From Candidatus Limnocylindrales bacterium (GTDB lineage Bacteria; Chloroflexota; Limnocylindria; Limnocylindrales; CSP1-4), in assembly GCA_036560085.1 (NCBI GenBank), contig DATBRX010000131.1, forward strand, positions 1 through 57,482: DNA of 57,482 nt, read 5' to 3'. The notes under the pieces were generated by a model. That model was not told where the DNA came from. It saw nothing but the letters and a program-made list of their open reading frames with translations, and did no database searches. The first letter of the stretch is position 1. Each line of letters opens with the position of its first letter. The position numbers were made by a program, and so were the translations under genes. Shown one piece after another: positions 1,679-55,804 of the stretch.

Positions 1679-1690
1679 CGCGCCGATGGG

Positions 1691-28420: not shown

Positions 28421-28478
28421 CCAAGTCCAACAAACAGCCCGGTAAGTCGCCGGGCGCTACGGAGGTAGAGAGAACGAG

Positions 28479-28691: not shown

Positions 28692-28712
28692 CCCGCGCAG
28701 GAAATTTCTGTC

Positions 28713-29270: not shown

Positions 29271-29272
29271 CC

Positions 29273-29830: not shown

Positions 29831-29883
29831 TCCCGCTGAATTAGACAGACATCGAACCGCACGAGTAACGGAGAAAACCTGCG

Positions 29884-31416
<1,533 letters not shown>

Positions 31417-31439
31417 CAGAGCCGGAGAAGTAGCGGCAC

Positions 31440-33738
<2,299 letters not shown>

Positions 33739-34167: not shown

Positions 34168-34190
34168 GAGATACGTGGCCGCAGGAACCC

Positions 34191-35531: not shown

Positions 35532-35547
35532 TGGATATCAGCAACTG

Positions 35548-41337: not shown

Positions 41338-41445
41338 CGCCCCTGAAGATTGGCGCGCCACGCTCACCGGCGGCTCATCTGGCGCTTGGCGCGCGCTTAT
41401 CATCGCGGCGATGCTGCCGCCGACGGCCCTGGACACGGCACGCAG

Positions 41446-42618
41446 ATGACCAATCGCCGCTGGGCGGGACCGCTGGCGCTCGGGCTTGCCGCGCTCGGGG
41501 TGCTCGTCCTGGTCGGGGTGCTGGCCGCGTGGTTCAACGAGTCGCGCGGCTGGGCCTACGACTTCCACCCCTATTACGACGGCGCATTGCGGCTGCTGGC
41601 CAACGGCAGCCCGTACCAAGCGGTGACCCTCGACGGTCCGTTCTCACCGGGACCCAAGGGCCTGTACCTGTACTCGCCCGTGCTCGCCGCGCTGTTCGTG
41701 CCGCTGACCTGGCTGGGCGAGGGGAGCGCCATCGTCGTCTGGGCTACGCTGCATATCGCGGCATTGGTCGCGCTCTGCGCGCTGATGCCAATCTCGCGCA
41801 ATCTGCGGCTCGCGACCTTCGGCATCGCCTGTCTCAGCGCGCCCGTCCTGTACGACATCGACCTGGGCAACGTCAGCCTGTTCGTCACGCTGGCCGCGGT
41901 GCTGGTCTGGCGCTGGCTCGACCGGCCGGGGAGCGGCATCGTGCTCGCCCTGGCGCTGCTGGTGCGACCGGCCATGGCGGTGATCTGTGGCTGGTGGCTG
42001 CTGCGCGGCCTGTGGCGGCCCGTCGCCTGGGCAGTTGGCACATTCGCCGCGGTCGCTGCGGTCAGCCTCGTTTGGCTGCGGCCGGACGTGTGGTGGGAGT
42101 GGCTGACCGTCCTGCGCAACGTGAGCAACGTGACGGGCGTGAAGGCCAATGTCGACCTGGGCTCGGCCGTGCTGATGGTCGGTGGCTCGGCCGAGGTCGC
42201 TCAGATCGCGCTGTACGGCGGCTACGTGATCGCGGTTGCGGCCATCCTGCTCAGCCTGCGCCGCGACCGCGAGCTGTCATTCGTGGTCACGCTCATGGCG
42301 ACGCTGCTGCTCTCGCCGCTGTTGTGGGACCACTACCTGACCAACCTGCTCATCCCGGCAGCGTTCCTGGCCGCGCGCGGGCGCGCCTGGGGCTTGGCCC
42401 TGCCGCTGCTGTGCTGGGCGCCGCAGATCATCGCCGTGCTCATACCGGAGATGCGGACCCATGCCGACGGAGCGCTGGCGCTGGTGGCGGTCCTGGGTGT
42501 CGTGCTGCCCTTCCTGGCGCCCGACTCAGATGCGCGCGCCGGCTTCTTCTGGGAGCGTCGCTGGGGGCCTTTACGCGGCCGGCGCCAGGGTGACGTAATC
42601 GCCGACGCTGAGGCCTGA
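41446..42618 (+). CDS. GT87 (DUF2029)-like polyprenyl-phosphate-sugar-dependent membrane glycosyltransferase
   Basis: ATG 41446. 'WAYDFHPYYDGALRLLANGSPY...LYLYSPVLAALFVP', then about 9 further hydrophobic segments. Confidence 0.65.
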   Translation: MTNRRWAGPLALGLAALGVLVLVGVLAAWFNESRGWAYDFHPYYDGALRLLANGSPYQAVTLDGPFSPGPKGLYLYSPVLAALFVPLTWLGEGSAIVVWATLHIAALVALCALMPISRNLRLATFGIACLSAPVLYDIDLGNVSLFVTLAAVLVWRWLDRPGSGIVLALALLVRPAMAVICGWWLLRGLWRPVAWAVGTFAAVAAVSLVWLRPDVWWEWLTVLRNVSNVTGVKANVDLGSAVLMVGGSAEVAQIALYGGYVIAVAAILLSLRRDRELSFVVTLMATLLLSPLLWDHYLTNLLIPAAFLAARGRAWGLALPLLCWAPQIIAVLIPEMRTHADGALALVAVLGVVLPFLAPDSDARAGFFWERRWGPLRGRRQGDVIADAEA

Positions 42619-42963
42619 GCTGGTCAGTGAACCGGCTGGGACCTCGACGGCGCCGCGCGCGCCGCGCACCCACGGCACGAGCCCGGTCCACGGCCGCAGG
42701 TTCGGTTTGAGCGCAACCACCATCCGTGCGCCGTCCGCGCGCGGCGCGCCAACGAATACCACGTCGATCGCGAAGCGCATGAAGAACATGTGCACCCCGT
42801 TGGTGCCGGGCAGGTAGAGCCCCTCGCCCGCGGCCAGGCCACGCCGGCCGATCAGGCCGCGTAGCCGCGCCAGCCACGAGTCGGCGACATCGAGCTGCCA
42901 CAGTGGTGCCGCCGAACCCGCGGCGTGCAGCTCCACCCTATTGCTCGGCTTCTTGTCGCTCAC
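42571..42963 (-). CDS. DUF192 (COG1430) family protein
   Basis: 'ADSWLARLRGLIGRRGLAAGEGLYLPGTNGVHMFFMRFAIDVVFV', C-terminal 'EVPAGSLTSSGLSVGDYV'. 24 nt downstream of tadC on the same strand. Confidence 0.75.
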   Translation of the reverse strand: MSDKKPSNRVELHAAGSAAPLWQLDVADSWLARLRGLIGRRGLAAGEGLYLPGTNGVHMFFMRFAIDVVFVGAPRADGARMVVALKPNLRPWTGLVPWVRGARGAVEVPAGSLTSSGLSVGDYVTLAPAA

Positions 42964-42987
42964 CGCGAACGATGATGCGCGATCGAG

Positions 42988-43911
42988 CTACTGGCCGTTG
43001 CTCATGTTGAGCGCGATCAGGATGATCGCCGGGCCAAGGATGACGATGAACATCGAGGGGAAGATGCAGCCGACGAGCGGGAAGAGCATCTTGATGGGCG
43101 CCTTGGCGGCCAGCTCCTCGGCACGCTGGCGGCGCTCGATGCGCAGCTGCTCCGACTGGACCTGCAGGACCTTGCTGATCGAGACGCCCAGCTGCTCGGC
43201 CTGGACGATCGCGCCGATGAAGTTGGACAGCGCCTGCACCTCAGTTCGGCCGACGATGTCGCGCAGTGCGTCGCGGCGCGTCTTGCCGACACGGATCTCG
43301 GCCAGTGCCCGGCGGAACTCGTCGGCCAGCGGGCCGTGCGTCTTCTCGACAACCTTGGCCAGCGCGCCATCGAACGACAGGCCGGCGCGGACCGAGATGG
43401 TCAGCAGGTCGAGCGTGTCGGGCGTGGCCAGCAGGATGGCCTTCTGGCGCGCCTTGATGCGTCGGCCGAGCCAGATCTCGGGCCCCAGGAAGCCGAACCC
43501 GCCAATGGCCAGCGCGCCGATGAAGCCGAAGGGCGCGTTGCCCATCAGGATGCCGAAGACCGCGAACGCGCCCGCGCCGAACAGGCCGGCCATGACCAGC
43601 TTCATGCCGAGGAAATCGATCGTTCGCAGAGCGCCCGGGTTGCCGGCCATCGACAGGCGCCTCTCCGTGCGACTGACCTTGGACGGACTGGCGAAGCGCT
43701 GAGCGATGCCTGACAGACGAGTAGCCAGGGGGCGCAGGGTGCGCTCGAACAACGGCTGCTGGAGCTCGATCTCCTCGAGCGTGCGGGCCTGCATCGAGCC
43801 GAGCTGCGACAGCCGGGCCTGGACCGGGTCCATCTGCTTGGATCCGGCGAGGGCGAGGAAGACGAGCAGGACGCCCAGCGCGGCGACGCCGGCCATGATG
43901 ATCGGAAGCAT
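42988..43911 (-). CDS. tadC: Tad pilus inner-membrane platform protein TadC (T2SS-F family)
   Basis: T2SSF domain pattern 'PDTLDLLTISVRAGLSFDGAL', terminal TM helices. Confidence 0.85.
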   Translation of the reverse strand: MLPIIMAGVAALGVLLVFLALAGSKQMDPVQARLSQLGSMQARTLEEIELQQPLFERTLRPLATRLSGIAQRFASPSKVSRTERRLSMAGNPGALRTIDFLGMKLVMAGLFGAGAFAVFGILMGNAPFGFIGALAIGGFGFLGPEIWLGRRIKARQKAILLATPDTLDLLTISVRAGLSFDGALAKVVEKTHGPLADEFRRALAEIRVGKTRRDALRDIVGRTEVQALSNFIGAIVQAEQLGVSISKVLQVQSEQLRIERRQRAEELAAKAPIKMLFPLVGCIFPSMFIVILGPAIILIALNMSNGQ

Positions 43912-43913
43912 CG

Positions 43914-44915
43914 CTAGACCTCGATGTCGACGATGCGCCGGATGAGGATGAAGCCTATGAGCATCATGAATCCGCCTCCGGCGAGAATGAACATGCCCGC
44001 GGGCAGCCCGAGCAGCTCGGGGGGCTTCTGGAGCATGGGCGCCATGAATGTTGGCGCGATGACCGATAGCAGTAGGACCAGCGCGATCGGCAGGAAGCCA
44101 ACGACATAGCCCGACATGCGCTGCTGCGCGGTGAGCGTTCGAATCTCGCCCTTGATGCGCACCCGCTCACGGATGGTGAACGCGATGCTGTCGAGGATCT
44201 CGGCGAGGTTGCCGCCGACCGTGTGATGGATGGCAATGGCCGTGGTCATCAGGTCGAGGTCGTCCGAGCGCACGCGGCGCTGGAGATTGGCCAGTGCCTC
44301 GTCGAGCGGCAGGCCCAGGTTGACCTCGCGGATGACACGCGCGAACTCGGTCGACATGGGCGGTCGGGTCTCACGCACGATCATTTCGACCGCCTGCAGG
44401 AAGGACGATCCGGCGCGCAGCGAGTTGGCGAGCAGCATGATCGTGTCGGCGAGCCCGGTATTGAACGCCTTGAGCCGCTTGCCCTTGCGCCGGCCGAGCC
44501 AGAACTTTGGCAGCCAGTACCCGACCAGCAGCGCCGCGATCCACGCGATTGGGCTGGCGAACAGAGGTATGAGTGGGCTCAGGCCGACGAACAGCAGGGG
44601 CAGCCCGAGGATCGCGCCAGCGCGAATGGCCAGGAACTCGGTGGGCTTCAGGGCCAGGTCGGCCCGGGCAAGCTCGCGGGCGAGGTTGCTGCCCCAGTCG
44701 CGGCGCTCGACGATGCGGTTGAAGTTGGCCAGCGCGGCTGATGTGGCGATGCGTTCGCCCAGGTCGCGCTTGGCCTCTGTGTCGTGGCGGTCGCTGTCGC
44801 CCGCGGCGTAGCGCTCGAGGCGCGCGTTCACGTCGGAGCCACCGGCGAGGCTGACGAAGATCAGCAGCACGCCGACGGCGGCACCAGCGGCGACGAGGAT
44901 GACGAGTGGATCCAT
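43914..44915 (-). CDS. tadB: Tad pilus inner-membrane platform protein TadB (T2SS-F family)
   Basis: 'LADTIMLLANSLRAGSSFLQAVEMI', 'EVNLGLPLDEAL'. 2-nt gaps to cpaF and tadC. Confidence 0.85.
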   Translation of the reverse strand: MDPLVILVAAGAAVGVLLIFVSLAGGSDVNARLERYAAGDSDRHDTEAKRDLGERIATSAALANFNRIVERRDWGSNLARELARADLALKPTEFLAIRAGAILGLPLLFVGLSPLIPLFASPIAWIAALLVGYWLPKFWLGRRKGKRLKAFNTGLADTIMLLANSLRAGSSFLQAVEMIVRETRPPMSTEFARVIREVNLGLPLDEALANLQRRVRSDDLDLMTTAIAIHHTVGGNLAEILDSIAFTIRERVRIKGEIRTLTAQQRMSGYVVGFLPIALVLLLSVIAPTFMAPMLQKPPELLGLPAGMFILAGGGFMMLIGFILIRRIVDIEV

Positions 44916-44917
44916 GG

Positions 44918-46396
44918 CTAGATCGGCTGCCCGAACATGCGCGGCGGCAGGTGGATGCCGTGCGCCTCGAACTTCTCACTGAAGCGCGGTCGCACACCGG
45001 TCGGGCGCAGCCGACCCTGGACCTTGCCCTCGACAATGCCGGTCTGCTCGAACATGAACACGTCCTGCAGGACGATGACGTCGCCTTCCATGCCCTGGAC
45101 CTCGGTGATGTTGGTGATCTTGCGCGACCCGTCCTTGAGCCGGTCCTGGTGCACGATCAGGTCGACGGCTGAGGCGATCTGCTCGCGCACAGCGCGCAGC
45201 GGCAGCTCGACGCCGGCGAACAGCACCATTGTCTCGAGGCGGGCGAGCATGTCGCGCGGCGTGTTGGCGTGACCGGTCGACATGGAGCCGTCGTGGCCGG
45301 TGTTCATGGCCTGGAGCATGTCCAGCGCCTCACCGCCGCGGCACTCGCCGACGATGATGCGATCGGGCCGCATGCGCAGGGCGTTGCGCACGAGCTCGCG
45401 GATGGGGATCGCGCCCTTGCCCTCGATGTTGGCCGGGCGCGACTCGAGCGTGACCACGTGCTCCTGGCGAAGCTGGAGCTCGGCCGCGTCCTCGACGGTG
45501 ACGATGCGCTCGTCGTTGGGAATGAACGATGAGAGAACGTTGAGCATCGTCGTCTTGCCGGAGCCCGTGCCGCCGCTGACAAAGACGTTGAGGCGCGCTT
45601 CGACGCACGCCCGCAGGAAGTCAAACATCTCCGGTGTCGAGGTGCCGAAGCGGATGAGGTCGTCGGTGGTCAGCGGCGTGGCCGCGAACTTGCGGATGGT
45701 CAGGACCGGGCCGACAAGCGAGATGGGTGGGATCACCGCGTTGACGCGCGACCCGTCGACGAGGCGCGCGTCGACCATGGGACTCGACTCATCGACTCGG
45801 CGGCCGATGGGCGAGATGATGCGATCGATGATGCGCATCACGTGCTCGTCGTTCTGGAAGGTGACGTTGGTCAGCTCCAGCTTGCCCGAGCGCTCGATGT
45901 ACACCTGGCGCGGGCCGTTGACCATCACCTCGGTGATGCCCTCGTCGCGCAGCAGCGGCTCGAGCGGGCCAAGACCGACGATCTCGTCGGTGATCTGCTC
46001 GAGCATGCGCGTGCGCTCGGCACGGGTGAGCGCCAGGCCCTCGGCGTCGAGCGCGCGGCCGAATGCTTCCTCGATCTCGCGCCGGACCTCGACCGCGTTG
46101 GCCAGGTCGAGCTTGGGATCGATGTCACTGATGACGCGCTGCTGAATGCGGAACTTGGCATCGCGGAACGACTCGCGCAGCGGCACCTGGGCGAGCATCC
46201 GCCCGGTCGTCGGGGCACCGCCCTGGCCGGGCGAGCCAGGAGCCGGGGGAGGCGCGGTCGGCAGCCGCTCAAGGCCGGCCGGTGGCCGGACCGGCGGCTG
46301 GCTCCCGGGGTTCTGCGACGCAGCCGGATCCGCCGGGGCGATGCCCGGCATGTCGGCGGCTGGTCGTGCGCTTTCTATGCGGCGCAGCAGAGACAT
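44918..46396 (-). CDS. cpaF: Tad pilus secretion ATPase CpaF/TadA (Pro-rich N-terminus)
   Basis: Walker A 'VSGGTGSGKTTMLN', 'VTVEDAAELQL', 'IIVGECRGGEALDMLQAMNTGHDGSMSTGHAN'. Confidence 0.95.
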   Translation of the reverse strand: MSLLRRIESARPAADMPGIAPADPAASQNPGSQPPVRPPAGLERLPTAPPPAPGSPGQGGAPTTGRMLAQVPLRESFRDAKFRIQQRVISDIDPKLDLANAVEVRREIEEAFGRALDAEGLALTRAERTRMLEQITDEIVGLGPLEPLLRDEGITEVMVNGPRQVYIERSGKLELTNVTFQNDEHVMRIIDRIISPIGRRVDESSPMVDARLVDGSRVNAVIPPISLVGPVLTIRKFAATPLTTDDLIRFGTSTPEMFDFLRACVEARLNVFVSGGTGSGKTTMLNVLSSFIPNDERIVTVEDAAELQLRQEHVVTLESRPANIEGKGAIPIRELVRNALRMRPDRIIVGECRGGEALDMLQAMNTGHDGSMSTGHANTPRDMLARLETMVLFAGVELPLRAVREQIASAVDLIVHQDRLKDGSRKITNITEVQGMEGDVIVLQDVFMFEQTGIVEGKVQGRLRPTGVRPRFSEKFEAHGIHLPPRMFGQPI

Positions 46397-46410
46397 CTAG
46401 CCCTTCTCCT

Positions 46411-47679
46411 TTAGTGGGCGCGCCACTGGAACAGGCCACCTGACTTTCGCTGCGCGGCGCGCGCTGGGGCCTGACCCGGCTGTACCTGCTCGCCACCAAC
46501 GATGGTCTTGGTCAAGCGCACGACGTCCTCGGCGACGCGCGTCTGGCGCGCGCCGACGACGAACGGCACGCCGCGGTTGAGGGCGTACACGACGGTCCGG
46601 CCGTCTGACACGATGCTGTGGCTGATCTTGCGCCCGATCGAGCTCTCGACGTCGTGCAGCCGGATGCCGTAGCCAGAGTCGGCGCGGTTGAGCAGCAGCT
46701 GGACCTTGCCCTCCGGATAGCCGAGCTGCTCGACGAGGGCCAGGAACTGGCGGATGTTCTTGATGTTGGTTATCTCGAGCGTCAGCACGGTCAGCACGAT
46801 GTCCGACTGATCGAGGAACGCGAGCGTCACGTCCTGGAGCAGCGGCGAGCAGTCGACCACGACCAGGTCGTGGGTCAGGCGCAGCGCGGAGATGATCTTT
46901 GAGACGTGGTCGGGCGTTACGAGCTCGGCCATCTCCGGGCTGGGCGGCGCCATCAGCACGCGCACGCCGGTGCTGTGATCGACGAGCGTTGTCTCGAGCG
47001 TCTCCATGTCCCCGCCCGCCATCTCGCGCGCCACATCGGCGATCGTCTGGTTCTTGGGATTGAGGTTGAGCAGCACGCCCACATCGCCGAATTGCAGGCC
47101 GCCGTCGACGAGCGCCACCTTCTTGCCGAGCTCGGCCTTGGCGGCCACGGCGAAGTTGACGGCCAGTGTCGTGCGCCCGACGCCGCCCTTGGGCGAGAAG
47201 AAGGTCACCACCTGGCCGTTGTGGGCCTGGATGGGCTCGGCATGGCCGTTGCCGGACGCCGCGGGTCGGACGCTGGCAACGCGATCGAGCTTCTGGCGCT
47301 CGCGCTGATGGACGTTTCGGATCGACGCCGCGAGCTCGTCGCTGCTGAACGGCTTGACGAGGAACTCGCGCGCGCCGGCGAGCATCGCGCGGCGCAGGTA
47401 GTCGGGCTCGCCCTGGACGCTCATCATGATGATCGAGGCCGTGGGCACACGCAGCGACAGCTGCTCGGCCGTGGCGATGCCGTCCATGCCGGGCATGTTG
47501 ATGTCGAGCAGCAGCACGTCGACCGGCGCTTGCGTGGCCAGGCTGAGCGCCTCCTGGCCAGAACCGACGCTGCCGACGACGGCCATGTCCGACTCGAAGC
47601 TGAGCAGCTTCGCCAGGTGGTCGCGCGTCTCGATGATGTCGTCGACGATCACCACCCGGATCGGCTCAGTTGTGCTCAC
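46411..47679 (-). CDS. cpaE: CpaE/TadZ-like ParA/MinD-family ATPase with N-terminal receiver domain
   Basis: REC: 'RVVIVDD', 'DVLLLDINMPGMDG', 'FLVKPF'. ATPase: deviant Walker A 'FSPKGGVGRTTLAVNFA'. Confidence 0.85.
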   Translation of the reverse strand: MSTTEPIRVVIVDDIIETRDHLAKLLSFESDMAVVGSVGSGQEALSLATQAPVDVLLLDINMPGMDGIATAEQLSLRVPTASIIMMSVQGEPDYLRRAMLAGAREFLVKPFSSDELAASIRNVHQRERQKLDRVASVRPAASGNGHAEPIQAHNGQVVTFFSPKGGVGRTTLAVNFAVAAKAELGKKVALVDGGLQFGDVGVLLNLNPKNQTIADVAREMAGGDMETLETTLVDHSTGVRVLMAPPSPEMAELVTPDHVSKIISALRLTHDLVVVDCSPLLQDVTLAFLDQSDIVLTVLTLEITNIKNIRQFLALVEQLGYPEGKVQLLLNRADSGYGIRLHDVESSIGRKISHSIVSDGRTVVYALNRGVPFVVGARQTRVAEDVVRLTKTIVGGEQVQPGQAPARAAQRKSGGLFQWRAH

Positions 47680-47706
47680 GGACGTGCGGCCTCCCCACCC
47701 ACCGGT

Positions 47707-48561
47707 TCAGGGCGTGACCGACTTGGGCGGCAGGACCCCCCATTGGTCGACCAGCTCCTTCAGGGTGATACCGCTGGTGGTTGTGTCCGGTGCCCCGCTA
47801 TCGCCGGGCGCCCGCATGAGGAGCGACACGTTGCCGTCGAGCTGGGCGAAACGCACGACTTCGGATTGCTGGGGCGAGACCGCGAGCACGACGACCACGT
47901 CCGGCTCGGGCACGCCATTTGGCGTAACCCCGTTGTTGGGGTCGTTTGACCGCGCCATGACCGCCAGGACCTGCACGTTCTGCACGACGACTTTGACGGT
48001 GGTGTTGTTCATGAATTCGTCGACCGAGATGTACGGGTTGGTATCCACCACCGTGCCATCCGGGCTCACGTGGCCGTAGTTCGGGTTGGGCAGCACCTGC
48101 GGGTTGAGCGAGTCGGTGTCGCGCATCGAGATGAGGACGTCGACCCGATCACCGGGCTGCAGCAGCGCGCCCACGGCGTCCACCTTGCTCAGCGGAATCG
48201 CGATCGCGACGAGTCCGGGCTGGATCGACCCGGCGATCTGGGCCACGGCGGTCGTGTCGAAATCGCTGGCCGTGAGGGCCTGGCCTGCCGGGACGGCGCG
48301 GCGGACGATCTGGCCCACCAGCTCCTCGGGATGCTGATATGTGCCCGAGGCATCTGCCTGCGGGCGCGGCTGAGTGGTCAGCTTGTCGGCCGTGAGCTCG
48401 GTGCCCAGGGTCAGGTCGACTGCGGCCACGACGACGTTGACGTCGGCCGGCGGCGCATCGACGGTCGGGCTGCCCAGGCCGCCGAATGCGAGCACCGCCA
48501 CGAAGGCGACGGCGGCGAGCAGGACACCGGCAATGAGCATGAATCGGTTGGCGCGCTTCAA
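47707..48561 (-). CDS. cpaB: Flp pilus assembly protein CpaB (SAF + RcpC-like)
   Basis: TTG start with GGAGAGG 6 nt upstream. N-terminal TM 'FMLIAGVLLAAVAFVAVLAF', 'VVVAAVDLTLGTELTADKL', 'GLVAIAIPL...LLQPGDRVDVL'. Confidence 0.85.
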   Translation of the reverse strand: MKRANRFMLIAGVLLAAVAFVAVLAFGGLGSPTVDAPPADVNVVVAAVDLTLGTELTADKLTTQPRPQADASGTYQHPEELVGQIVRRAVPAGQALTASDFDTTAVAQIAGSIQPGLVAIAIPLSKVDAVGALLQPGDRVDVLISMRDTDSLNPQVLPNPNYGHVSPDGTVVDTNPYISVDEFMNNTTVKVVVQNVQVLAVMARSNDPNNGVTPNGVPEPDVVVVLAVSPQQSEVVRFAQLDGNVSLLMRAPGDSGAPDTTTSGITLKELVDQWGVLPPKSVTP

Positions 48562-48822
48562 GGTGCCTCTCCAAGCGTGGTGTGACAGGTGTCAACGACC
48601 ATAGAAGCGGTGCAGGGGTGTCGCGATGCCCCGAATGGGCTAGGACCATGCGCCTCTGCACCGTACCGACCACCCGCCTGGTGCCCGGCGAAACGACCCC
48701 TCATTCACGCTGGCCAGGGCGCTGGGCGCACAAGAAAAGAGAGCGCCACCTGGTCCCGCGAGATAGGACTCAGGCGGCGCTCCCACGAGCGGGCGCTCCC
48801 GCTGCCGCGGGCCCTCCACCCG

Positions 48823-48957
48823 CTACATGCGGTTCCCGAGGTCGGACAGCATCGAGTTGATCGAGCCGCCCATGAAAGTGATCGCGATGATCGACGCCAC
48901 CGCAATGAGGGCCAGGATGAGTGCGTACTCGGCCAGTCCCTGTCCGGCCTGCTTCAT
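48823..48957 (-). CDS. flp: Flp/Fap family pilin (copy 1, nearest cpaB)
   Basis: Not in the track (<60 aa). MKQAGQGLAEYALILALIAVASIIAITFMGGSINSMLSDLGNRM. Carries the G/xxxxEY processing motif. An in-frame GTG at 48990 with GGAG upstream would add 11 aa. Confidence 0.8.
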   Translation of the reverse strand: MKQAGQGLAEYALILALIAVASIIAITFMGGSINSMLSDLGNRM

Positions 48958-49169
48958 TCGAGCAGGCGCGCGCCCAGATGCGAACTTCACTTCAGTGCTC
49001 CGTCGATAAGTGCTTGCATCGCAATAGCCGCGACGCTGCCCCGACTCTGGCCCAGGCCACTGGGGGCCGAAATAGGAAAGCGGTACCCATTGGCGGCGCC
49101 GCCTGCCGTCGCACGGGGCAGCTGCGCAACGAGGCGGTGCGTCAAGGCTCCGCCACCGCGCGGACGACG

Positions 49170-49310
49170 CTAGCCGTTGATCGTGTCGGCGATGATCGAG
49201 AGGATGTCGTTGATCTGGGTGCCGAACAGGGTCAGCGCGACCAGTGCCACGATCACGATGAGGGCGACGATCAGCGCGTACTCAGCCAGGCTCTGACCGC
49301 GGTCGTCCAT
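49170..49310 (-). CDS. flp: Flp/Fap family pilin (copy 2)
   Basis: Not in the track. MDDRGQSLAEYALIVALIVIVALVALTLFGTQINDILSIIADTING. No obvious SD. Confidence 0.75.
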   Translation of the reverse strand: MDDRGQSLAEYALIVALIVIVALVALTLFGTQINDILSIIADTING

Positions 49311-49360
49311 GGCGCCGATCGTAAGGCATCACGCCCTGGCCGATTGGCGGTGTGCCGGGC

Positions 49361-49395
49361 AAAGGAAAAGGGCGTCGGCCTTGCGGCCGACGCCC
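49361..49395 (-). terminator. Strong intrinsic terminator/attenuator 25 nt after flp copy 3
   Basis: Minus strand: GGGCGTCGGCC-GCAA-GGCCGACGCCC (11-bp GC stem, GNRA loop), followed by TTTTCCTTT. Confidence 0.65.
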
Positions 49396-49420
49396 TGCTT
49401 GTCGCTTGTGGCGAACGAGA

Positions 49421-49585
49421 TCAGATCTTGTTGCCGACGTTCGACAGGATGCTGTTGATCTGGCCACCGAGGAACGTGACCGCGGCGATCGCCAGGACGG
49501 CGATGAGCGCCAGGATCAGCGCGTACTCGGCCAGACCCTGACCGCGCTCGTCGCTGCGAATCAGGCTCACCAGGTACTGAAGCAT
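49421..49585 (-). CDS. flp: Flp/Fap family pilin (copy 3, promoter-proximal, long leader)
   Basis: Not in the track. MLQYLVSLIRSDERGQGLAEYALILALIAVLAIAAVTFLGGQINSILSNVGNKI. GGAGGG SD upstream. Confidence 0.85.
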   Translation of the reverse strand: MLQYLVSLIRSDERGQGLAEYALILALIAVLAIAAVTFLGGQINSILSNVGNKI

Positions 49586-49780
49586 TCGAACACCCTCCGG
49601 TATTGGATTAGTCCATCAAGAAGGACGCGCCAAAGATGCGCCGCACCGCAGCGCTGCCGAAATGGGACGAGAGTCCAAGCCGGGTAGCCACTAGTCCTGC
49701 CCGGATTCGTGCTCGGTGACCGGTCAGGCGGGGCATCGAGCACGCCCGCAGCGGGGCACCGAGCCGCTCGCAGCGGGGCG

Positions 49781-50896
49781 TCAGCCCGTGGCTGTGCTCA
49801 CCTCGAGCGTCGAACGGTCGCTCGACAGGGTCACCTGCAGCCCCGCAGCATCAGCACGCAGCTGGATGTCGCTCCACGCCCCCTCGGGCAGCCCGGTGGC
49901 ACGCAACGTGTCGTCGCGCTCCTGTTCGCGGATCATCGATGCCAGGGCGGCGGGCAGAGTTCGTTCGTGGCGCGCGGCGGCAACGACGGCGTGGGCCCGG
50001 GTCGCGGCGCTCTGGGTGGCCTGCGCGCTGCTGGCCTGGATCGTGGCGCTGACGCTGCCTGCGGTCCAGTTGAGCTTCACGCTGAGCGCCGCGGGCGCGC
50101 CTGACAGGTAACCGCTCATGGCGTCGTCGATGATCCGGAACAGCGCGCTCTCGAGGTCTGACCTCAGGCGTCGGTCTGCGCCGACCGATTCGAAGCGCAC
50201 CGCGAGGCCCGCGCGCCGGCCGCGCTCCAGGGACGAGCGGCGCAGCGTCGGCACGAGGCCCAGGTCATCGAGCACCATCGGCCGTACGTCGAAGATGAAA
50301 TCCTTGGTCGCGGCGAGCGCGTGCTCGACCATGCGCACGAGCTCGGCCAGCTCAGCCTGGGCCTGCTCGGGCTGGCGCTCGAATAGCCGCTGGACCACGT
50401 GCGCCTGCAGGGCGATGTTAGCGATGCTCTGCGCCGGCCCATCGTGCATCTGGCGCGCTATCTCGCGGCGCAGTTGCTCTTGGGCGGCCAGGTCCTCGCC
50501 CGGGTTCGTATTGGGGGCCGAGGCGGCCACAATGCCGTCCGGGGGGACGGCGCGCATGACGGGCAGTATCTCTGCCAGCCGGTCGCGGAAGCGCTGCAGC
50601 GCGCGTTGCTTGCCGCCGAGCACGTCGAGCTGGGCCTGCATCAGCGTCACCCGTCGCGTCTGGGCCAGGAGCGCCGTCCGTGCCTCTGCCAGCTCCGGCG
50701 CAACAGGCTCGTTGCGCTCGAGCGCGGTGACGCGTTCCTCGGCCTGGATGCGCCGCGCCTCGTGGCGCTCGCTCTCGGTCGCGGTCTGGCGCAGCAGCAT
50801 CTCGATCTCGGCAAGCTCGCGCTCGAGCGTCGCCTGGTCCGCGGCGAGCTCGCCCGCCAGCTGAGGCAGCGTCCTATCCATCGGTCGAATCCACAC
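49781..50896 (-). CDS. DegS-like cytoplasmic histidine-kinase homologue with HisKA_3 H-box but a degenerate ATPase domain
   Basis: N-terminal coiled coil. H-box 'REIARQMHDGPAQSIANIALQ'. No recognisable N-box, G1 (DxGxG) or G2 in the C-terminal half. Confidence 0.65.
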   Translation of the reverse strand: MWIRPMDRTLPQLAGELAADQATLERELAEIEMLLRQTATESERHEARRIQAEERVTALERNEPVAPELAEARTALLAQTRRVTLMQAQLDVLGGKQRALQRFRDRLAEILPVMRAVPPDGIVAASAPNTNPGEDLAAQEQLRREIARQMHDGPAQSIANIALQAHVVQRLFERQPEQAQAELAELVRMVEHALAATKDFIFDVRPMVLDDLGLVPTLRRSSLERGRRAGLAVRFESVGADRRLRSDLESALFRIIDDAMSGYLSGAPAALSVKLNWTAGSVSATIQASSAQATQSAATRAHAVVAAARHERTLPAALASMIREQERDDTLRATGLPEGAWSDIQLRADAAGLQVTLSSDRSTLEVSTATG

Positions 50897-50914
50897 CCGT
50901 ATCCGTGCTCAAGA

Positions 50915-51661
50915 TCAGTCCTCGGGGATCCGGATCCAGCCCTGCTTCATCGCGTAGACCACGGCCTGCGTGCGGTCGTTGACCGACAGCTTGCGCAGGA
51001 TCGAGCTCATGTGGTTCTTCACCGTCTGCTCGGAGATCGTCAGCGCATACGCGACCTGCTTGTTGGTCATGCCCTTGGCGATGTTGTCCAGGATCTCGAC
51101 CTCACGCGGCGAGAGCGGCGCGAAGATGGGAGCTGCTTCCTGGCCGTACACCGCCAGCTCGCGGAACTCCTTCAAGACGCGTGACGCGACCGACGGGCGT
51201 GAAAAGACCTTGTCGTTGATCAGGTACTCGCCGGCGCGAACGCGGCGGATGATGGTGACGAGGTCATCAGGGTTGATGTCCTTGAGGATGAATGCCGCGG
51301 CACCGGCCTTGATGGCCTCGAACAGCTGGTCCTCGTCCTCTGCGACCGCGAGGGCGATGATGCCCGCTGACGGGACCTCGCGCTTGATGCGCTGCGTCGT
51401 CTCGATGCCGCCCGGGGCAGGCAGCGACAGGTCGAGCAAGACAATGTCGGGCGTCATCTCCACCGCCATCGAGAATGCTTCACGCGCGTCCTCGGCCTCG
51501 GCGACGATGTCGAAATCGGGCTCCTTGTCGAGCATCTGGCGCATGCCCATGCGGAACAGGGCGTGGTCGTCGACAAGCAGGATCTTGGTGCGCTGCTCGG
51601 GGTTGCGCCGGTCAGGCCCTCCGCGTCTCCGGTCAGGCCCGCTGTAATCGGCTTCGTTCAC
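50915..51661 (-). CDS. NarL/LuxR-family response regulator
   Basis: REC 'KILLVDDHALFRMG', 'DIVLLDLSLP', 'FILKD'. GerE HTH 'LSPREVEILDNIAKGMTNKQVAYALTISEQTVKNHMSSILRKL'. N-terminal 'GPDRRRGGPDRRN' repeat. Confidence 0.9.
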   Translation of the reverse strand: MNEADYSGPDRRRGGPDRRNPEQRTKILLVDDHALFRMGMRQMLDKEPDFDIVAEAEDAREAFSMAVEMTPDIVLLDLSLPAPGGIETTQRIKREVPSAGIIALAVAEDEDQLFEAIKAGAAAFILKDINPDDLVTIIRRVRAGEYLINDKVFSRPSVASRVLKEFRELAVYGQEAAPIFAPLSPREVEILDNIAKGMTNKQVAYALTISEQTVKNHMSSILRKLSVNDRTQAVVYAMKQGWIRIPED

Positions 51662-52521
51662 TGGTGACTCCTCTCTTGTAGAGCGATGGTGAGCCGCACG
51701 ACCGTGCCGGCGGCATGGTGGGATTTGATGGCCAGGCTCGAGCCGAGCAATTCAGCCCGCTCGCGCATGAAACGCAGTCCGAAGTGGCGGCGGTTGGGAT
51801 TGGCAGTAACCGTCGTGTAGTCGAAGCCGCGGCCGTCGTCACCGACTTCGAGCACCCACGTCGGGCTGCCGTCGGGAGCTACGCCCTCGCTGGTGTGGAT
51901 CCATGCCCGACTGGCTGATGCGTGTTTGGCGATATTGCGCAGGGCCTCCTGGGCGACGCGCAGCACGACAGTGCGCGCGGCGGCATGAAGATAGTTGCCC
52001 GCGGCTTCGAGCCGGAGCTCGATTGGCAGTCCGGAGCGCTGGCTGATTGCCGACGCGCTGTCGCGCAGGGCATCGTCGAGCCCGACGGCCTCGCCGAGCG
52101 ACGGCCGGAGCTGGTTGATGTAGCCACGCAGCGTGTCCAGCTCGCGCTCCAGCAGCGTGCGCAGCGCGGTCAGCTCCGTAACCGCGGCGGCCGGTTCTTC
52201 GCGCAGCGCGCGCTCGACGAGCTGCGTCTGGAAGATGGCGTTGGCAAAGGCCTGCGCCGGACCATCGTGGAGCTCCTCGGCGAGGCGAGAGCGCTCCTGC
52301 TCTTGGGCACCCAGGAGAGCCATCGCGATTCGCGGATCAGCCTCGAGCGGGGTAGCGTCGGCCGCCAGTGCGGACTCCGCCTCCGGCACGGGAGACGCAT
52401 CGGCTTGCACCTGGCGGTTGGCGGCCAAGGTGCCGTTCTCCATCGAATTCGGAGTATAGGTCGCTGGGACGTCCCGACTTGTGGTGCGCGCACGCACCAC
52501 GTCGCGCTCGTTGTCGCTCAT
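51658..52521 (-). CDS. Soluble HisKA_3 histidine kinase without a recognisable sensor domain
   Basis: H-box 'LAEELHDGPAQAFANAI', N-box 'QEALRNIAKHASA', G1 'VGDDGRGFD', G2 'HFGLRFMRERAELLG'. No TM segment. 4-nt overlaps with the upstream GT-C gene and the downstream RR gene. Confidence 0.85.
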   Translation of the reverse strand: MSDNERDVVRARTTSRDVPATYTPNSMENGTLAANRQVQADASPVPEAESALAADATPLEADPRIAMALLGAQEQERSRLAEELHDGPAQAFANAIFQTQLVERALREEPAAAVTELTALRTLLERELDTLRGYINQLRPSLGEAVGLDDALRDSASAISQRSGLPIELRLEAAGNYLHAAARTVVLRVAQEALRNIAKHASASRAWIHTSEGVAPDGSPTWVLEVGDDGRGFDYTTVTANPNRRHFGLRFMRERAELLGSSLAIKSHHAAGTVVRLTIALQERSHQ

Positions 52522-54155
52522 CGACAGGCCTCATTGACCGTGAAGGCGGCACTCTCGGAAGGCATTCCGGGCACCTCCACGAAGCAAGCGGCAGCTTCAG
52601 CGGAGCGCAACACGCCCGGGAAAGCGCCGCGCGGCTCGGTCACGACGACCAGCCCGGCGTTGAAGTCACGCGCCAGCTGCGTGATCGAGCCGACCGCCTC
52701 GTCGGGCAGGGCGAGGGCCGGCCGGCCGGTGGCACTCGACAACCAAATGGGCCGATCGGTGATCACGGGCTCGGCGCCGCCGGGCAAGGCCGCCGCCACG
52801 CTCTGGATGTGAGCGCTATCGGTCAGTGCAGCGTTGGCCGCGCCGACCAGGGCGAGGGACGTGATGGGAATCGTGGCCAGGGCGAGCGCTGCCGGGGCGA
52901 GCCACGAGTTCGAGCGCGGCCAGCTCCGCCAGACGCGGATGCGCGCCACCAAGGCGTCTAGGCCCACGACGGCGGCCACGATCAAGCCGACGTGGAGCGG
53001 CCCGGCGGCGTGCTCGAACGTGCCCCAGAGCGTCGCGACCGGGAAGAGCACGCTCGTTGCGAAGAACGTGATGGCGCCGCTCAACAGCAACATGGCGAGC
53101 GGCCCCTGCCTGGAGAGCGACGTGCGTCCGGCGAGAGCGGCCGCCACGGTCACGAGGCCGATGACCGCCACCGGGCCAGCGCCAACCACGAGCACGTCGA
53201 CTGCGTCGTGCCACAACGCGCCTCCGATGTTGCCCAGGATCGTGAGCAGGCCCTGGGCCAGGAACCCGCTGAGCGTCGGCTGATCGGTGTAGGCGAAGAT
53301 CTGCTCGTTGCGCGTCAGGAAGATGTTGTCGGTCACCTGGCCGGGCAGCGGCGTGCCGAATACGGCAAGGTTGCGCGCCCACCAGGGCAGCGCGACGAGT
53401 GCCGCGATCGCAGCGACCCCCGTCGATGTGGCGAAGGTCCGGGCCACCGACTGACCGGCCAGCAGGCTGCCGACCACGAAGGCGACTCCCAGCCACACCG
53501 CTTCCATCCGCGTCAGGTAGGCGAGACCGAGCGTCACGCCCAGCGCGATGACGTTCTTACGCTCGCCGGCAACGGCGCGTGGGATGAGCAGGCCCGCCGC
53601 GACTCCAAGAACGGCGAAGGGAATGGTCGAGTCAGGCGCGCCCGTTGCGAGCAGCAGCGGCGCCGAGCTGGCGGTCAACAACGCGGCGCCGAGTTCGACG
53701 GTCATGGAACGCCGCTCGTCCAGCTTCAGGGCGCGGGCCGTGTCGCGCGCCACGAGCCAGGCCATCGGCGCGAGCGTGGCGCCCAACAGGACGAAACCCA
53801 TCTGGGCCGCGCTGAACGACGGGCCGAAAAGAGCCAACCCGGCGGCGGCGACGAAGGAGGCCATCGGCTGCCAGAGTTCGAACGCTGGCCGGGGCAGCGT
53901 CAGTGGAGGCGTGGCGTAGCTCCAGATTGCATCGATCACCGGGCCGCGGCCGTTGACCAGGTTGCGCGCCACGTCGACGTAGTAGCTCGTTCCTTCTGAG
54001 AGCGGATCGCGCACGAGCGCGATCACGAGCAGGCCGATGGCCAGCCCGAGAACGTAGAGCGCGGCAAAGGTCGTGGCGCTCGCGACAAGCGGCCGCCGCC
54101 AGACGTGGGCATGGACCGCGCCCATGGTGGGCGCCGTCGCCGTCATTGCTCGCAC
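52518..54155 (-). CDS. GT-C-fold membrane glycosyltransferase-like protein (PMT_2/ArnT-like) with extracytoplasmic C-terminal domain
   Basis: First-loop 'EGTSYYVDVARNLVNGRG', at least 10 hydrophobic segments, soluble Cys-containing tail of about 110 aa. Same architecture as the upstream paralogue. Confidence 0.6.
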   Translation of the reverse strand: MRAMTATAPTMGAVHAHVWRRPLVASATTFAALYVLGLAIGLLVIALVRDPLSEGTSYYVDVARNLVNGRGPVIDAIWSYATPPLTLPRPAFELWQPMASFVAAAGLALFGPSFSAAQMGFVLLGATLAPMAWLVARDTARALKLDERRSMTVELGAALLTASSAPLLLATGAPDSTIPFAVLGVAAGLLIPRAVAGERKNVIALGVTLGLAYLTRMEAVWLGVAFVVGSLLAGQSVARTFATSTGVAAIAALVALPWWARNLAVFGTPLPGQVTDNIFLTRNEQIFAYTDQPTLSGFLAQGLLTILGNIGGALWHDAVDVLVVGAGPVAVIGLVTVAAALAGRTSLSRQGPLAMLLLSGAITFFATSVLFPVATLWGTFEHAAGPLHVGLIVAAVVGLDALVARIRVWRSWPRSNSWLAPAALALATIPITSLALVGAANAALTDSAHIQSVAAALPGGAEPVITDRPIWLSSATGRPALALPDEAVGSITQLARDFNAGLVVVTEPRGAFPGVLRSAEAAACFVEVPGMPSESAAFTVNEACR

Positions 54156-55804
54156 CGCGGATCTTCAGGCGTGAGGCACACCGCGTAGACGGCGCCCGCG
54201 GGACTCGCGACGGTCACCGGGTTGATCGTCGCCACTGGCGCGCTGACGCGCGACGGCACGACGGCGACCGGCGCGGACAACCAGGTCGGATGCACCGTGC
54301 CGTTCAGCACCGGCACCAGGGCGGGAACGATCGAACCCTGCTCGAGCACCAGCCAGCGCACGTCATAGGCGCGCATCGCTGATTCGATGGTCGCCAAATC
54401 ATCGTTCGGCGAGATGACGCCCGGATGGCCGCTCAGGTAGTGATAGGCGCCGCTGTCGCCGGACATGACGCGGTCGCTGTGCGGCGCGACGATCAGCGCC
54501 GCGGCCAGGCGCGACTCGACGTCACGGACCGCGCGCCACTCGCCGATGGTGATCAGGGACTGGCCGACCGCGCCCAAGAAGGCGACGGCGACCGCGCCGT
54601 ATGCGAAGCGCCGCGTCGCCGTGGCCGCATCCCAGGTGGGACGGCGCTCAGCGATCCAGCGCACCGCGCCACCCACGCCGATGACCACGAGCACGAACGT
54701 GTGGGGGAGGAGCGCTACTGCCGAGTGGATGAATGTGCCGTAGGGCACGTGCACAGCGAAGACCAGGCCGCTTGCGGCGAATAGGACGAGCCCGTAGATG
54801 AGCATCGGGACGACGTTGGTGTCGCGCCTTCGTGCCGACGCCCCAATGAGCGCAAACGGCGTCAAGACCACGACGAGCGGCAGGAGCGCGAACTGGCCCA
54901 GCGCGCTCAGCAGCCCGCTCAGCCGCGAAGCGAGGAACGGCCCCCAGCCGTCGGCGAGGAGCGTCGCGGGCGTTGCCGGGGCGGTGACGCTGAACAGCTG
55001 GCCGTAGTCGCTGATCCACAGGATCCGTCCGTTCGCCGCCGATGGCGCGATCGAACCGAAGACCTCGAGCTGGCGATACAGCCACGGCCCGTAGAACAGC
55101 CCGAAGAGCCCGATGCAGCCGATGGCCGCGGACCAGCCGATCACCTGCCCGCGCCCACGGCCACGCACCAGCTCGCGTGCGAACGCGAGCGCGAACGGCA
55201 CTCCGAGCAGCACGCCGTCGTTGCGCGCCAGCGCGGCGAGGCCAACAACGGCGCCACCGAGCACGAACGCGCGGCGATCACCGCGCATACCGCGCGCGCA
55301 CAGCCACAGCGCCAGCGCGCCAAGTGTCATGAAGAGCCCAAAGTTGTCCGGCTGGCCGAAGAACGGCGTCAAGCCGCCCGGTACCGCGGCCAGCAGCCCC
55401 GCGGCCACGGACAGGCGCGTCTCCAGGCCGGCGTCGCGGGCAATGAAGTAGGTCAGTGGCGCCGCCGCCGCCCCAATGAGCCACATCGGCAGCTGGGACG
55501 CCAGCGCTGTGGTGCCAAGCACCCAGATGAAGGGCACCTGGACGAGCACCGCCAGCGGCAGCCAGTGGCCATTGGAGGGGATGGGCAGGGTCGGGTCGGT
55601 CGGTATCTGCCCGCCGACGTCGACGAAATTCCAGATGTAGTCGATCGTCAGGCCATGACCGCCAGCCAGCGACTGGGCGACGCTGTAGTAGTAGTAGGAG
55701 TCGGGGTAGGCGGGACCCGCGAAGGCAGCGCCGACCGCTACCCTGACCAGGAAGGCGGCCGCAAACAGTCCTAGAGCGATCATGACTGCGGTGCACCGTA
55801 GCAA
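54143..55804 (-). CDS. GT-C-fold membrane glycosyltransferase-like protein (PMT_2/ArnT-like), tandem paralogue
   Basis: 'YPDSYYYYSVAQSLAGGHG' first-loop motif, polytopic, C-terminal soluble domain. 13-nt overlap with the next gene. Confidence 0.65.
   Translation of the reverse strand: MLRCTAVMIALGLFAAAFLVRVAVGAAFAGPAYPDSYYYYSVAQSLAGGHGLTIDYIWNFVDVGGQIPTDPTLPIPSNGHWLPLAVLVQVPFIWVLGTTALASQLPMWLIGAAAAPLTYFIARDAGLETRLSVAAGLLAAVPGGLTPFFGQPDNFGLFMTLGALALWLCARGMRGDRRAFVLGGAVVGLAALARNDGVLLGVPFALAFARELVRGRGRGQVIGWSAAIGCIGLFGLFYGPWLYRQLEVFGSIAPSAANGRILWISDYGQLFSVTAPATPATLLADGWGPFLASRLSGLLSALGQFALLPLVVVLTPFALIGASARRRDTNVVPMLIYGLVLFAASGLVFAVHVPYGTFIHSAVALLPHTFVLVVIGVGGAVRWIAERRPTWDAATATRRFAYGAVAVAFLGAVGQSLITIGEWRAVRDVESRLAAALIVAPHSDRVMSGDSGAYHYLSGHPGVISPNDDLATIESAMRAYDVRWLVLEQGSIVPALVPVLNGTVHPTWLSAPVAVVPSRVSAPVATINPVTVASPAGAVYAVCLTPEDPRCEQ

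Follow-up and report, generated by a model that had tools for sequence, protein, structure and literature searches.

The stretch of DNA analyzed here (hereafter, the window) comprises 57,482 nt at ~68% G+C from a contig of a metagenome-assembled genome (MAG) of Candidatus Limnocylindrales (Chloroflexota). Between positions 42571 and 55804 it carries 14 genes, all on the minus strand, in which two large membrane proteins with a predicted GT-C glycosyltransferase fold and a kinase module precede the pilins and assembly genes of a tight adherence (Tad) pilus. Assigning domains to the open reading frames (ORFs) of the window with Pfam and NCBIfam gives the order GTC1, GTC2, histidine kinase (HK), response regulator (RR), HK-like, flp1-3, CpaB, CpaE with a receiver domain (REC-CpaE), CpaF, TadB, TadC, and DUF192. 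A preliminary description of the same DNA had placed 14 minus-strand genes at these coordinates, and every one of them is present in the ORF list and the domain scans. The remaining genes of the window are housekeeping genes—secA, gyrBA, parAB, PBP2/RodA, ribosomal proteins, prfA, ATP synthase, murA, mreB, and others.

GTC1 (54143..55804; start at 55783 in the database, where NCBI names it 'glycosyltransferase family 39') and its paralog GTC2 (52518..54155) score 25.5 and 30.6 bits against the Pfam family PMT_2, just below and above its cut-off of 26.1 bits, respectively. Pfam detects no MIR domain in either protein, NCBIfam assigns neither to any family, ArnT included, and PDB sequence searches with both gave nothing meaningful and no match to solved PMTs or ArnT, so their classification as GT-C rests on predicted folds. 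The AlphaFold 2 models have pLDDT values of 87 (GTC1) and 79.7 (GTC2), and all of their Foldseek matches in the PDB (E ≤ 0.001) are GT-C enzymes. For GTC1 these are STT3/AglB/PglB and ArnT (TM 0.56/0.57), AftA, ALG9 and, at a lower rank, Pmt4; for GTC2 they are AglB, ArnT (TM 0.51), STT3, AftA, and PglB. AftB and DPY19 are further matches across the pair, and the TM values for ArnT lie between 0.51 and 0.57 in both directions. On these confident models, both proteins are predicted to have a multi-pass GT-C fold with an extracytoplasmic C-terminal domain, in agreement with the GT-C label first given to them; the predicted fold fits a protein, lipid, or glycan acceptor alike. GT-C enzymes have their catalytic residues right after the first transmembrane segment (TM1), and acidic motifs directly after TM1, in the first extracytoplasmic loop, are retained in both paralogs. 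An alignment of orthologs shows PAYPD[SA]xYY (with Asp in ≥90%), RxDG, and H353 to be conserved in GTC1, and FPxPE[DG][TS]AYY in Limnocylindria and GFPLDDxWIH in Anaerolineae to be conserved in GTC2. Membership in the ArnT family (GT83) was considered and rejected, since the likeness is one of fold, with neither an NCBIfam nor a PDB sequence match, and since Chloroflexota are reported to have no outer membrane (PMC12488501).

The signaling genes follow GTC2 directly. HK (51658..52521) is a soluble, sensor-less kinase of 287 aa with HisKA_3 and HATPase_c domains, intact H, N, G1, and G2 boxes in the alignment, and no hydrophobic segment. RR (50915..51661) is a response regulator of the NarL/DegU type, with REC and GerE domains in Pfam and a NarL-like NCBIfam match below cut-off, and is 74-87% identical in Limnocylindria relatives. 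HK-like (49781..50896; 371 aa) matches HisKA_3 only: it has a coiled-coil N-terminus and keeps a DHp domain with the H-box MHDGPAQ (DxxxQ signature), its ATP-binding domain is degenerate, and because the N, G1, and G2 boxes are lost in the alignment we regard it as a DegS-like pseudokinase. Neither HK nor HK-like has a transmembrane or known sensor domain. The DegS domain PF05384 was not detected in HK-like at E ≤ 0.01; it is found in the positional orthologs of Anaerolineae and Ardenticatenia, which align end to end. These orthologs (L029:6847-7911, L165-L174) are complete kinases with DegS, HisKA_3, and HATPase_c domains, encoded directly after the regulator, and the extra short kinase is not present in their clusters, which have an ordinary pair of regulator and DegS-like kinase. 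The Limnocylindria module is for these reasons a derived, split version of a DegS/DegU-like two-component system (TCS). What had been called a three-protein kinase module is present and can now be described more specifically as a catalytic kinase, a NarL-type regulator, and a DegS-like pseudokinase, with a pair in its place in Anaerolineae. The arrangement of HK and HK-like looks like a lineage-specific separation of sensing from catalysis.

A further receiver domain (Response_reg, E 1.5e-26) is joined to the ParA-like ATPase (AAA_31/CbiA) of CpaE/TadZ (46411..47679). It is canonical-looking, with the acidic pair DD, the phospho-acceptor D58, and K108 present, and in a motif count all three motifs were found in 46/46 Chloroflexota loci versus 10/30 loci of other phyla. 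The TadZ receiver is usually described as atypical (bioRxiv 10.64898/2026.07.08.737194). Judging from its sequence, the CpaE receiver may be a target of phosphotransfer.

The other assembly genes are CpaB/RcpC (47707..48561; SAF and RcpC domains in Pfam, and TIGR03177 at 137 bits, above cut-off), the secretion ATPase CpaF/TadA (44918..46396; T2SSE, E 5.6e-63), whose nearest relatives are in Chloroflexota/Limnocylindria MAGs at 77-85% identity, and the platform proteins TadB (43914..44915) and TadC (42988..43911), both with T2SSF. The run ends with a DUF192 protein (42571..42963; DUF192, E 3e-13), whose gene recurs at the end of Tad operons in monoderm phyla. It is present in 13/28 loci from Chloroflexota and in 16/42 from other phyla, and in a Firmicutes tad operon it was noted in 2025 as the second-to-last gene, close to the 3' end (PMC12786226). 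No Peptidase_A24 (TadV/CpaA), secretin, or TadE/F/G was found by Pfam among all sizeable ORFs of the window, and a combined profile and motif scan of the 544 window ORFs of ≥30 aa recovered three Flp prepilins and nothing TadE-like, so the reported lack of secretin, prepilin peptidase, and TadE/F/G in the window holds. In loci of Firmicutes and Actinobacteria, the same TadE-type profile does find pseudopilins. The flanks of relatives for which Pfam annotation was at hand (up to ±10 kb) likewise contain neither TadV nor a pseudopilin.

Pilins, transcription units, and a candidate operator

The three prepilins score 25.6-32.0 bits against Flp_Fap, just under its cut-off of 32.2, and all have the G/xxxxEY motif and a hydrophobic helix. 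Flp1 (49421..49585; 32.0 bits; G/QGLAEY), the probable major pilin, has its own upstream spacer and a strong terminator. Flp2 (49170..49310; 25.6 bits) is divergent and a candidate minor pilin, and flp3 (48823..48990; 29.5 bits) starts at 48957 in the database, with a gene call of 44 aa. The mature pilins have ~39 residues, for example QGLAEYALILALIAIVAIVALIFLGGQVSKILSTVGNSV. Their C-terminal tails, described at first as Ser-rich, are real sequences and only modestly so, with 2-3 Ser in 13 residues. As a separate, conserved paralog, flp2 ends in the tail ...GTQINDILSIIADTING and has orthologs in L086, L087, and L088. Some relatives have a further divergent Flp in which Glu replaces Ser at mature position 33; Flps of this kind and of the flp2 type may stand in for the missing minor pilins of the TadE/F type.

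The junctions divide the cluster. The overlaps of 13 nt (GTC1/GTC2), 4 nt (GTC2/HK), and 4 nt (HK/RR), by which these four genes are translationally coupled, and the short gaps of 18 nt (RR/HK-like), 2 nt (cpaF/tadB), and 2 nt (tadB/tadC) are exactly as first reported. The claim that overlaps or tiny gaps run throughout fails around the pilins, where the spacers measure 195 nt (HK-like to flp1), 110 nt (flp1 to flp2), 179-212 nt (flp2 to flp3), and 261 nt (flp3 to cpaB). An intrinsic terminator on the minus strand follows flp1 (49369..49396), with a 12-bp stem of which 10 pairs are GC, a U-run, and a folding energy of -32 kcal/mol (z = -5.0, 0/200 shuffles as stable). After flp3, on the same strand, lies a terminator-like hairpin with a U-tract (48730..48783; z = -4.65, 0/200 shuffles as stable). 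The cluster is several adjacent operons, a supra-operon, and not one operon; from the junctions, the likely transcription units are GTC1-GTC2-HK-RR-(HK-like), flp1, flp2-flp3, and cpaB-cpaE-cpaF-tadB-tadC-DUF192. A scan of the whole window with Rfam, for riboswitches or other RNAs near the pilin genes, matched no family, and a sigma-70 promoter scan of 42-57 kb gave zero matches with a model that is uninformative for Chloroflexota.

Roughly 80 nt upstream of flp1 lies the palindrome GGAC-N4-GTCC (49665..49676), a candidate operator for a GerE-type regulator. It is conserved as GGGACnCCnGTCCCAT at the same position in L084, L086, L087, L095, L108, and L001, within a spacer that has otherwise diverged. 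The readable footprint comes from close relatives only, the flp1-upstream alignment across distant relatives being too noisy. Five GGAC/GTCC half-sites occur in the spacer upstream of flp1; upstream of GTC1, flp2, flp3, and cpaB there is no second full palindrome, only scattered half-sites. The conserved palindrome fits a dimeric GerE-type regulator acting at the major pilin promoter and is only a lead. It also fits the idea, put forward in the preliminary description, of one regulon under the kinase module, to the extent that the regulator would control flp1; a single transcription unit does not fit the terminators and spacers.

Conservation across Chloroflexota

The association was examined in both directions. 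In the forward test, one genome per species of the Genome Taxonomy Database (GTDB) was scanned with CpaF, and the best 80 of 599 loci were taken with 10-kb flanks and annotated by tblastn and purpose-built profiles. A GT-C pair lay upstream, in the same order, in 13/25 species-level Tad loci of Chloroflexota with ≥7.5 kb of sequence upstream of CpaF, and in 0/42 Tad loci from phyla other than Chloroflexota (Firmicutes, Actinobacteria, Planctomycetota, Acidobacteriota, and others). Five of the 13 positives are of the Limnocylindria type and eight come from Anaerolineae/Ardenticatenia, with CpaF at 58-67% identity; among the 12 GT-C-negative Chloroflexota loci, four have a HisKA_3 kinase upstream and eight have neither. 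A HisKA_3 kinase is also nearby in 11 of the 42 loci of other phyla. Co-localization in relatives, on which the preliminary description had in part staked its reading, is present: gene order and strand are kept across two Chloroflexota classes at 25-30% GT-C identity, and the arrangement recurs in dozens of independent contigs, far beyond chance.

The reverse test was a metagenome scan seeded with the alignment of GTC1 orthologs, which yielded 80 loci at 44-69% identity. Counting the loci with enough downstream sequence, GTC1 is accompanied by the second GT-C gene in 32/39, the TCS in 28/28, flp in 21/23, and the tad core in 17/18. With conservation in both directions, a functional linkage of the GT-C pair, the kinase module, flp, and the tad core is strongly supported.

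For GT-C proteins of the Anaerolineae type, ten database proteins were examined on their contigs with precomputed Pfam labels. Six contigs show the order GT2-methyltransferase-(X)-(Y)-GTC-GTC-RR-DegS kinase-Flp-REC-CpaE-CpaF-TadB-TadC-ComF-hpf, where X and Y are protein families taken up below, and on a seventh (L167) the GT-C pair lies ~9 kb from an inverted tad cluster. Two others (L169:10001-11783, L172:8916-10676) represent one lineage, with GT-C proteins 83% identical, in which one isolated GTC1-type gene and one isolated canonical flp converge, a dodecin gene follows flp, and no tad core occurs within 10 kb. The GT-C genes of this lineage stay with the pilin gene, not with the tad machine, and contexts without flp/tad genes are very rare for the GT-C subfamily. 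Two further loci (L020, L038) have the TCS and the tad core with no flp or GT-C gene in the same stretch.

Such adjacency could be functionally meaningless, the inherited synteny of a slowly rearranging, origin-proximal region. Origin-proximal regions often carry parAB and gyrBA, as the window does together with ATP synthase, murA, and mreB; ATP synthase and MreB also flank the GT-C pair in the distant locus L167, and GT-C genes are missing from half of the Chloroflexota tad loci. We nevertheless consider this explanation very unlikely, given that order and strand persist in two classes at such low GT-C identity, that stop and start codons overlap, that the reverse test finds the TCS in every scorable locus and the tad core in all but one, and that the pair of GT-C and flp outlives relocation from the tad core. 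In both the window (27311-36537) and the distant Anaerolineae-type locus (L167:4212-9906), ATP synthase and mreB lie near the tad/GT-C region.

Neighboring glycosyltransferases and the putative acceptor

Divergent from GTC1, on the plus strand, a two-gene operon encodes GT87b (55908..56777; GT87, E 4.7e-10), a short GT-C membrane protein of the GT87/DUF2029 type, and GT2 (56755..57482; Glycos_transf_2, E 1.9e-25), which overlaps GT87b by 23 nt and is cut by the window end. The best PDB sequence matches of a full-length GT2 ortholog are ArnC (E 6e-14), the dolichol-phosphate-mannose synthase (DPMS) 5mlz (E 9e-10), and GtrB, all three enzymes that load sugar onto polyprenyl phosphate, and we regard GT2 as a candidate polyprenyl-phosphate sugar synthase of the ArnC/DPMS type. 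A divergent GT2 gene stands upstream of GTC1 in at least 25/39 metagenome loci, and a GT87 gene stands upstream in at least 12/25 relatives with enough sequence, both lower bounds obtained with profiles built from two sequences each. The GT2 of the Anaerolineae clusters is co-directional with the GT-C pair, and its best match in the window is this divergent GT2. With an ArnC/DPMS-like GT2 as conserved neighbor, a polyprenyl-phosphate sugar is the putative donor of GTC1 and GTC2. Beyond the other end of the cluster, the gene call GT87a (41386..42618, plus strand; GT87, E 2e-21) encodes a PimE-like GT-C protein; GT87 genes vary in position among relatives, inside or beside the cluster. The 3' ends of the convergent genes GT87a and DUF192 overlap by 48 nt (42571-42618), and transcriptional interference or antisense effects are possible. 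The cluster initially delimited at 42571-55804 is real, and the conserved unit is larger, taking in the divergent GT87b-GT2 operon (55908 to the window end), GT87a, and a ComF-like gene described below.

In the Anaerolineae clusters, a trio of GT2, methyltransferase, and a ~490-aa protein lies directly upstream of the GT-C pair. This protein (X, ~490 aa) and another (Y, ~355 aa) belong to families without a Pfam match that are kept between the methyltransferase and the GT-C pair in Anaerolineae/Ardenticatenia (L029:182-2789; L165:7427-10008; L170:7420-9960; L166:6480-7937). The window has a second trio of the glycosylation type at 1070-4439, 50 kb from the pilus genes, made up of a Methyltransf_23 gene (1070-1678, minus strand), an AglJ-like GT2 (1691-2698, minus strand), and a divergent 555-aa multi-pass membrane protein (2772-4439, plus strand) without a Pfam or NCBIfam match. 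We rejected this distal trio as a counterpart of the Anaerolineae one: its GT2 and methyltransferase are only weakly similar, and the 555-aa protein is not similar.

We propose, with roughly even confidence, that the locus encodes a TCS-controlled monoderm Tad pilus with a dedicated polyprenyl-phosphate-sugar glycosylation module, for which the pilin is the likeliest acceptor. The host would be a single-membrane member of the Chloroflexota, and the locus would fall into three blocks, for the pilus, signaling, and glycosylation. The pilus block would consist of the three spaced flp genes and the assembly operon from cpaB to DUF192, with a prepilin peptidase presumably encoded elsewhere in the genome. 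The GerE-type regulator would bind the palindrome upstream of flp1 and set pilin transcription, and the CpaE/TadZ receiver may give the same kinase a second, post-translational handle on assembly; control of pilus production by the kinase module, with this candidate operator, is plausible. GT2 would make a lipid-linked monosaccharide, the GT-C pair, possibly as a heterodimer, would transfer the sugar at the outer face of the membrane, and one or two GT87 enzymes would extend the glycan. The acceptor would be the exposed C-terminal tail of the membrane-embedded Flp, with Ser33 as the candidate residue, modified before assembly. As the GT-C substrate, the pilin is our best single guess, with an envelope glycan as a serious rival. 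In its fully specified form—O-glycosylation of Flp by GT2, a heterodimeric GT-C acting on Ser33, and GT87, wired to a split kinase/pseudokinase that controls both transcription and TadZ-mediated assembly—the model is possible and somewhat doubtful. If the pilin is modified, O-linkage is likelier than N-linkage, because Limnocylindria pilins have no N-x-S/T sequons and those of Anaerolineae have them inconsistently; an N-glycosylation reading, which the oligosaccharyltransferase-like fold matches had raised, was rejected as the main model on the same grounds.

In favor of the pilin as acceptor, mature position 33 is Ser or Thr in 65/72 distinct pilins of GT-C-positive loci versus 15/41 pilins from Tad loci of other phyla. 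Several observations weigh against this proposal. The enrichment at position 33 is confounded by phylogeny because GT-C-negative Chloroflexota pilins have Ser33 too. Glycan density is absent from the only Tad pilus that has been solved, that of Caulobacter (PMC10710030). The palindrome GGAC-N4-GTCC occurs once in the window, close to the chance expectation of 1.74, its conservation being the sole support for it, and co-transcription cannot be assumed because of the terminators after flp1 and flp3 and the long spacers. With TadV and pseudopilins missing from the window as well as from the annotated flanks of relatives, the completeness of the Tad machine is uncertain. About half of the Chloroflexota tad loci are without the GT-C pair. 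The tenth of the Anaerolineae-type contigs (L168:6738-15268) has GT2-methyltransferase-X-GTC-GTC-RR-DegS kinase with no tad or flp genes adjoining, and a full-ORF profile search found a GTC1 homolog and GT87 with no TCS or tad genes in L093:8356-13092; on account of these exceptions, the tightest partner of the GT-C genes is the TCS and not the pilus genes. Some of the adjacency may be inherited synteny, because the ATP synthase/MreB neighborhood is conserved as well.

The most serious alternative is that the GT-C, GT2, and GT87 enzymes build or decorate an envelope glycan or adhesin (for example a wall polysaccharide, a lipoglycan, a sheath, or a holdfast-like material), that the DegS/DegU-like TCS induces it along with the pili in a common program of surface attachment, and that the pilin is unglycosylated. 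A set of up to four GT-C proteins and a lipid-sugar synthase is indeed reminiscent of the enzymes with which Actinobacteria build polymers (PMC3485146, PMC12041525). The genes to which the GT-C pair is coupled are those of the TCS and not flp, L168 retains the glycosyltransferase module and the TCS where no tad genes adjoin, the GT-C genes of L167 are paired with a polysaccharide deacetylase, and GT4 and FemAB-like genes lie upstream in L084. An enzyme set devoted to the envelope would be expected in Tad-less contexts as well, however, and against this stand the near confinement of the GT-C subfamily to flp/tad neighborhoods and the L169/L172 lineage, which keeps only GT-C and flp together. 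We judge this alternative rather unlikely.

A different main role for the membrane proteins would be that of co-sensors, GT-C-like in fold, that pass a signal, such as the status of lipid-linked sugar or of the pilus, to two soluble, sensor-less kinases. Such a role would suit HK and HK-like, which lack transmembrane and known sensor domains of their own, as well as the translational coupling of the GT-C genes to kinase genes and the fact that GT-C and TCS form the most constant pairing. It would leave unexplained why both paralogs have kept acidic motifs of the catalytic type after TM1 and why a GT2 resembling lipid-sugar synthases accompanies the GT-C pair in both classes; moreover, we know of no precedent for a GT-C protein as a kinase co-sensor, and we hold the idea to be highly improbable.

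Downstream of the tad genes and beyond GT87a, on the minus strand, a ComF(C)-like protein is encoded (40684..41337; TIGR00201 comF, E 2e-26, below cut-off). Such a gene, with a double zinc ribbon and a phosphoribosyltransferase domain, follows the tad genes in 25/28 Chloroflexota loci (it was seen in L002-L040, L165, L166, L170, L171, L173, and L174, with hpf next in Anaerolineae). Its recurrence hints at an old linkage of tad and comF and at a possible role of the pilus in DNA uptake. On that basis the cluster might instead serve primarily in competence, as a DNA-uptake pilus with ComF(C) and DegS/DegU-like regulation as in Bacillus, which would be compatible with either the pilin or the envelope as glycosylation target. 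In Bacillus subtilis degSU is presumably located near comF. Flp pili of Micrococcus luteus have been implicated in DNA uptake (PMC6370729). In the window, the convergent GT87a separates DUF192 from ComF, which are therefore not co-transcribed; the ComF family is widespread, including in bacteria not known to be competent, and Pfam finds no comEC, comEA, or dprA in the window. A competence function appears unlikely to us.

Relation to known systems

Tad pili are the most widespread bacterial adhesive pili, and their pilins are regarded as bare helices of 40 residues. If the proposed pilin glycosylation is true, a conserved GT-C module in Tad loci would change views of the surface chemistry, adhesion, phage evasion, and bundling of these pili, would give a large branch of 'family 39-like' GT-C enzymes that has no name a function, and would be the first case in which the glycosylation of Tad pili depends on GT-C enzymes. 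Bacteria would then offer a parallel to Archaea, in which AglB, itself a GT-C enzyme, glycosylates pilins. With the split kinase/pseudokinase and the canonical TadZ receiver, a TCS would have a direct route to the gating of pilus assembly. MAGs of Anaerolineae and Ardenticatenia carry the cluster as well, and any cultured carriers would open the hypothesis to experiment.

Full-text literature searches returned no paper in which GT-C or family-39 enzymes are connected with Tad loci and none on Limnocylindria pili. The preliminary description had stated that no Tad locus of this composition was known, and we likewise found no such paper, with the qualification that the secretin-less Tad locus by itself is already documented (PMC12488501). 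Secretin-less Chloroflexota Tad systems, TCS-linked Tad loci, and GT-C-dependent pilin glycosylation are already known separately; no description was found of their conserved combination, of the split kinase/pseudokinase, or of a canonical TadZ receiver.

The secretin-less Tad system is the norm in Chloroflexota, in which Tad occurs in about one-third of 3,780 genomes (PMC12488501), and Chloroflexales loci comprise rcpC-tadZABC, tadEEG, and flp (PMC7332563). The window cluster resembles such monoderm loci in CpaB, CpaE/TadZ, CpaF/TadA, TadB, TadC, a short Flp with G/xxxxEY, and the lack of a secretin (PMC12488501, PMC7332563). Unlike the loci of Chloroflexales, Firmicutes, and Actinobacteria, it has no pseudopilins of the TadE/F/G type, and it differs from other monoderm Tad loci in its canonical TadZ receiver and in the embedded GT-C pair, GT2, GT87, and DegS-like TCS.

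For both the signaling and the glycosylation genes, partial counterparts exist in other bacteria. The PprAB TCS is encoded beside the flp-tad-rcp genes of Pseudomonas aeruginosa, and its regulator drives flp/tad expression (PMC3510237, PMC6821963). The window cluster shares with PprA-PprB a TCS encoded beside Tad genes, whereas its kinases are soluble and HisKA_3/DegS-like, one of them a pseudokinase, its host is monoderm, and its TCS lies in an operon with glycosyltransferases. TfpW, a GT-C protein encoded next to pilA, glycosylates the type IVa pilin of P. aeruginosa (bioRxiv 10.1101/2020.04.19.049825). The likeness to TfpW, and to TfpO/PilO and PglL, compared by description only, is that of a GT-C enzyme near a pilin gene, and TfpW modifies Ser/Thr from a polyprenyl-phosphate sugar; TfpW is a single enzyme acting on a globular type IVa pilin, whereas the window has a Tad locus with a GT-C pair plus GT2/GT87. 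In Actinobacteria, proteins are O-mannosylated by Ppm1 and Pmt, and the GT87 enzyme PimE depends on polyprenyl-phosphate-mannose (PMC5882110, PMC12041525). The same logic, a GT2 lipid-sugar synthase with GT-C enzymes of the PMT_2 and GT87 types, underlies actinobacterial Ppm1/Pmt (GT39)/PimE (PMC5882110, PMC12041525, PMC3485146) and would apply to the window, in which, by contrast, the PMT_2 scores are marginal, MIR is lacking, and the genes are clustered with pilus genes, the actinobacterial genes being scattered. Finally, DegS-DegU of Bacillus subtilis provides the closest likeness for the kinase module, pairing a NarL-type regulator with a soluble HisKA_3 kinase that has a coiled coil and a DegS domain, the latter shared by the Anaerolineae orthologs; relative to that system, loss of the ATP-binding domain sets the DegS-like protein of the window apart, as does the addition of a second kinase, itself sensor-less.

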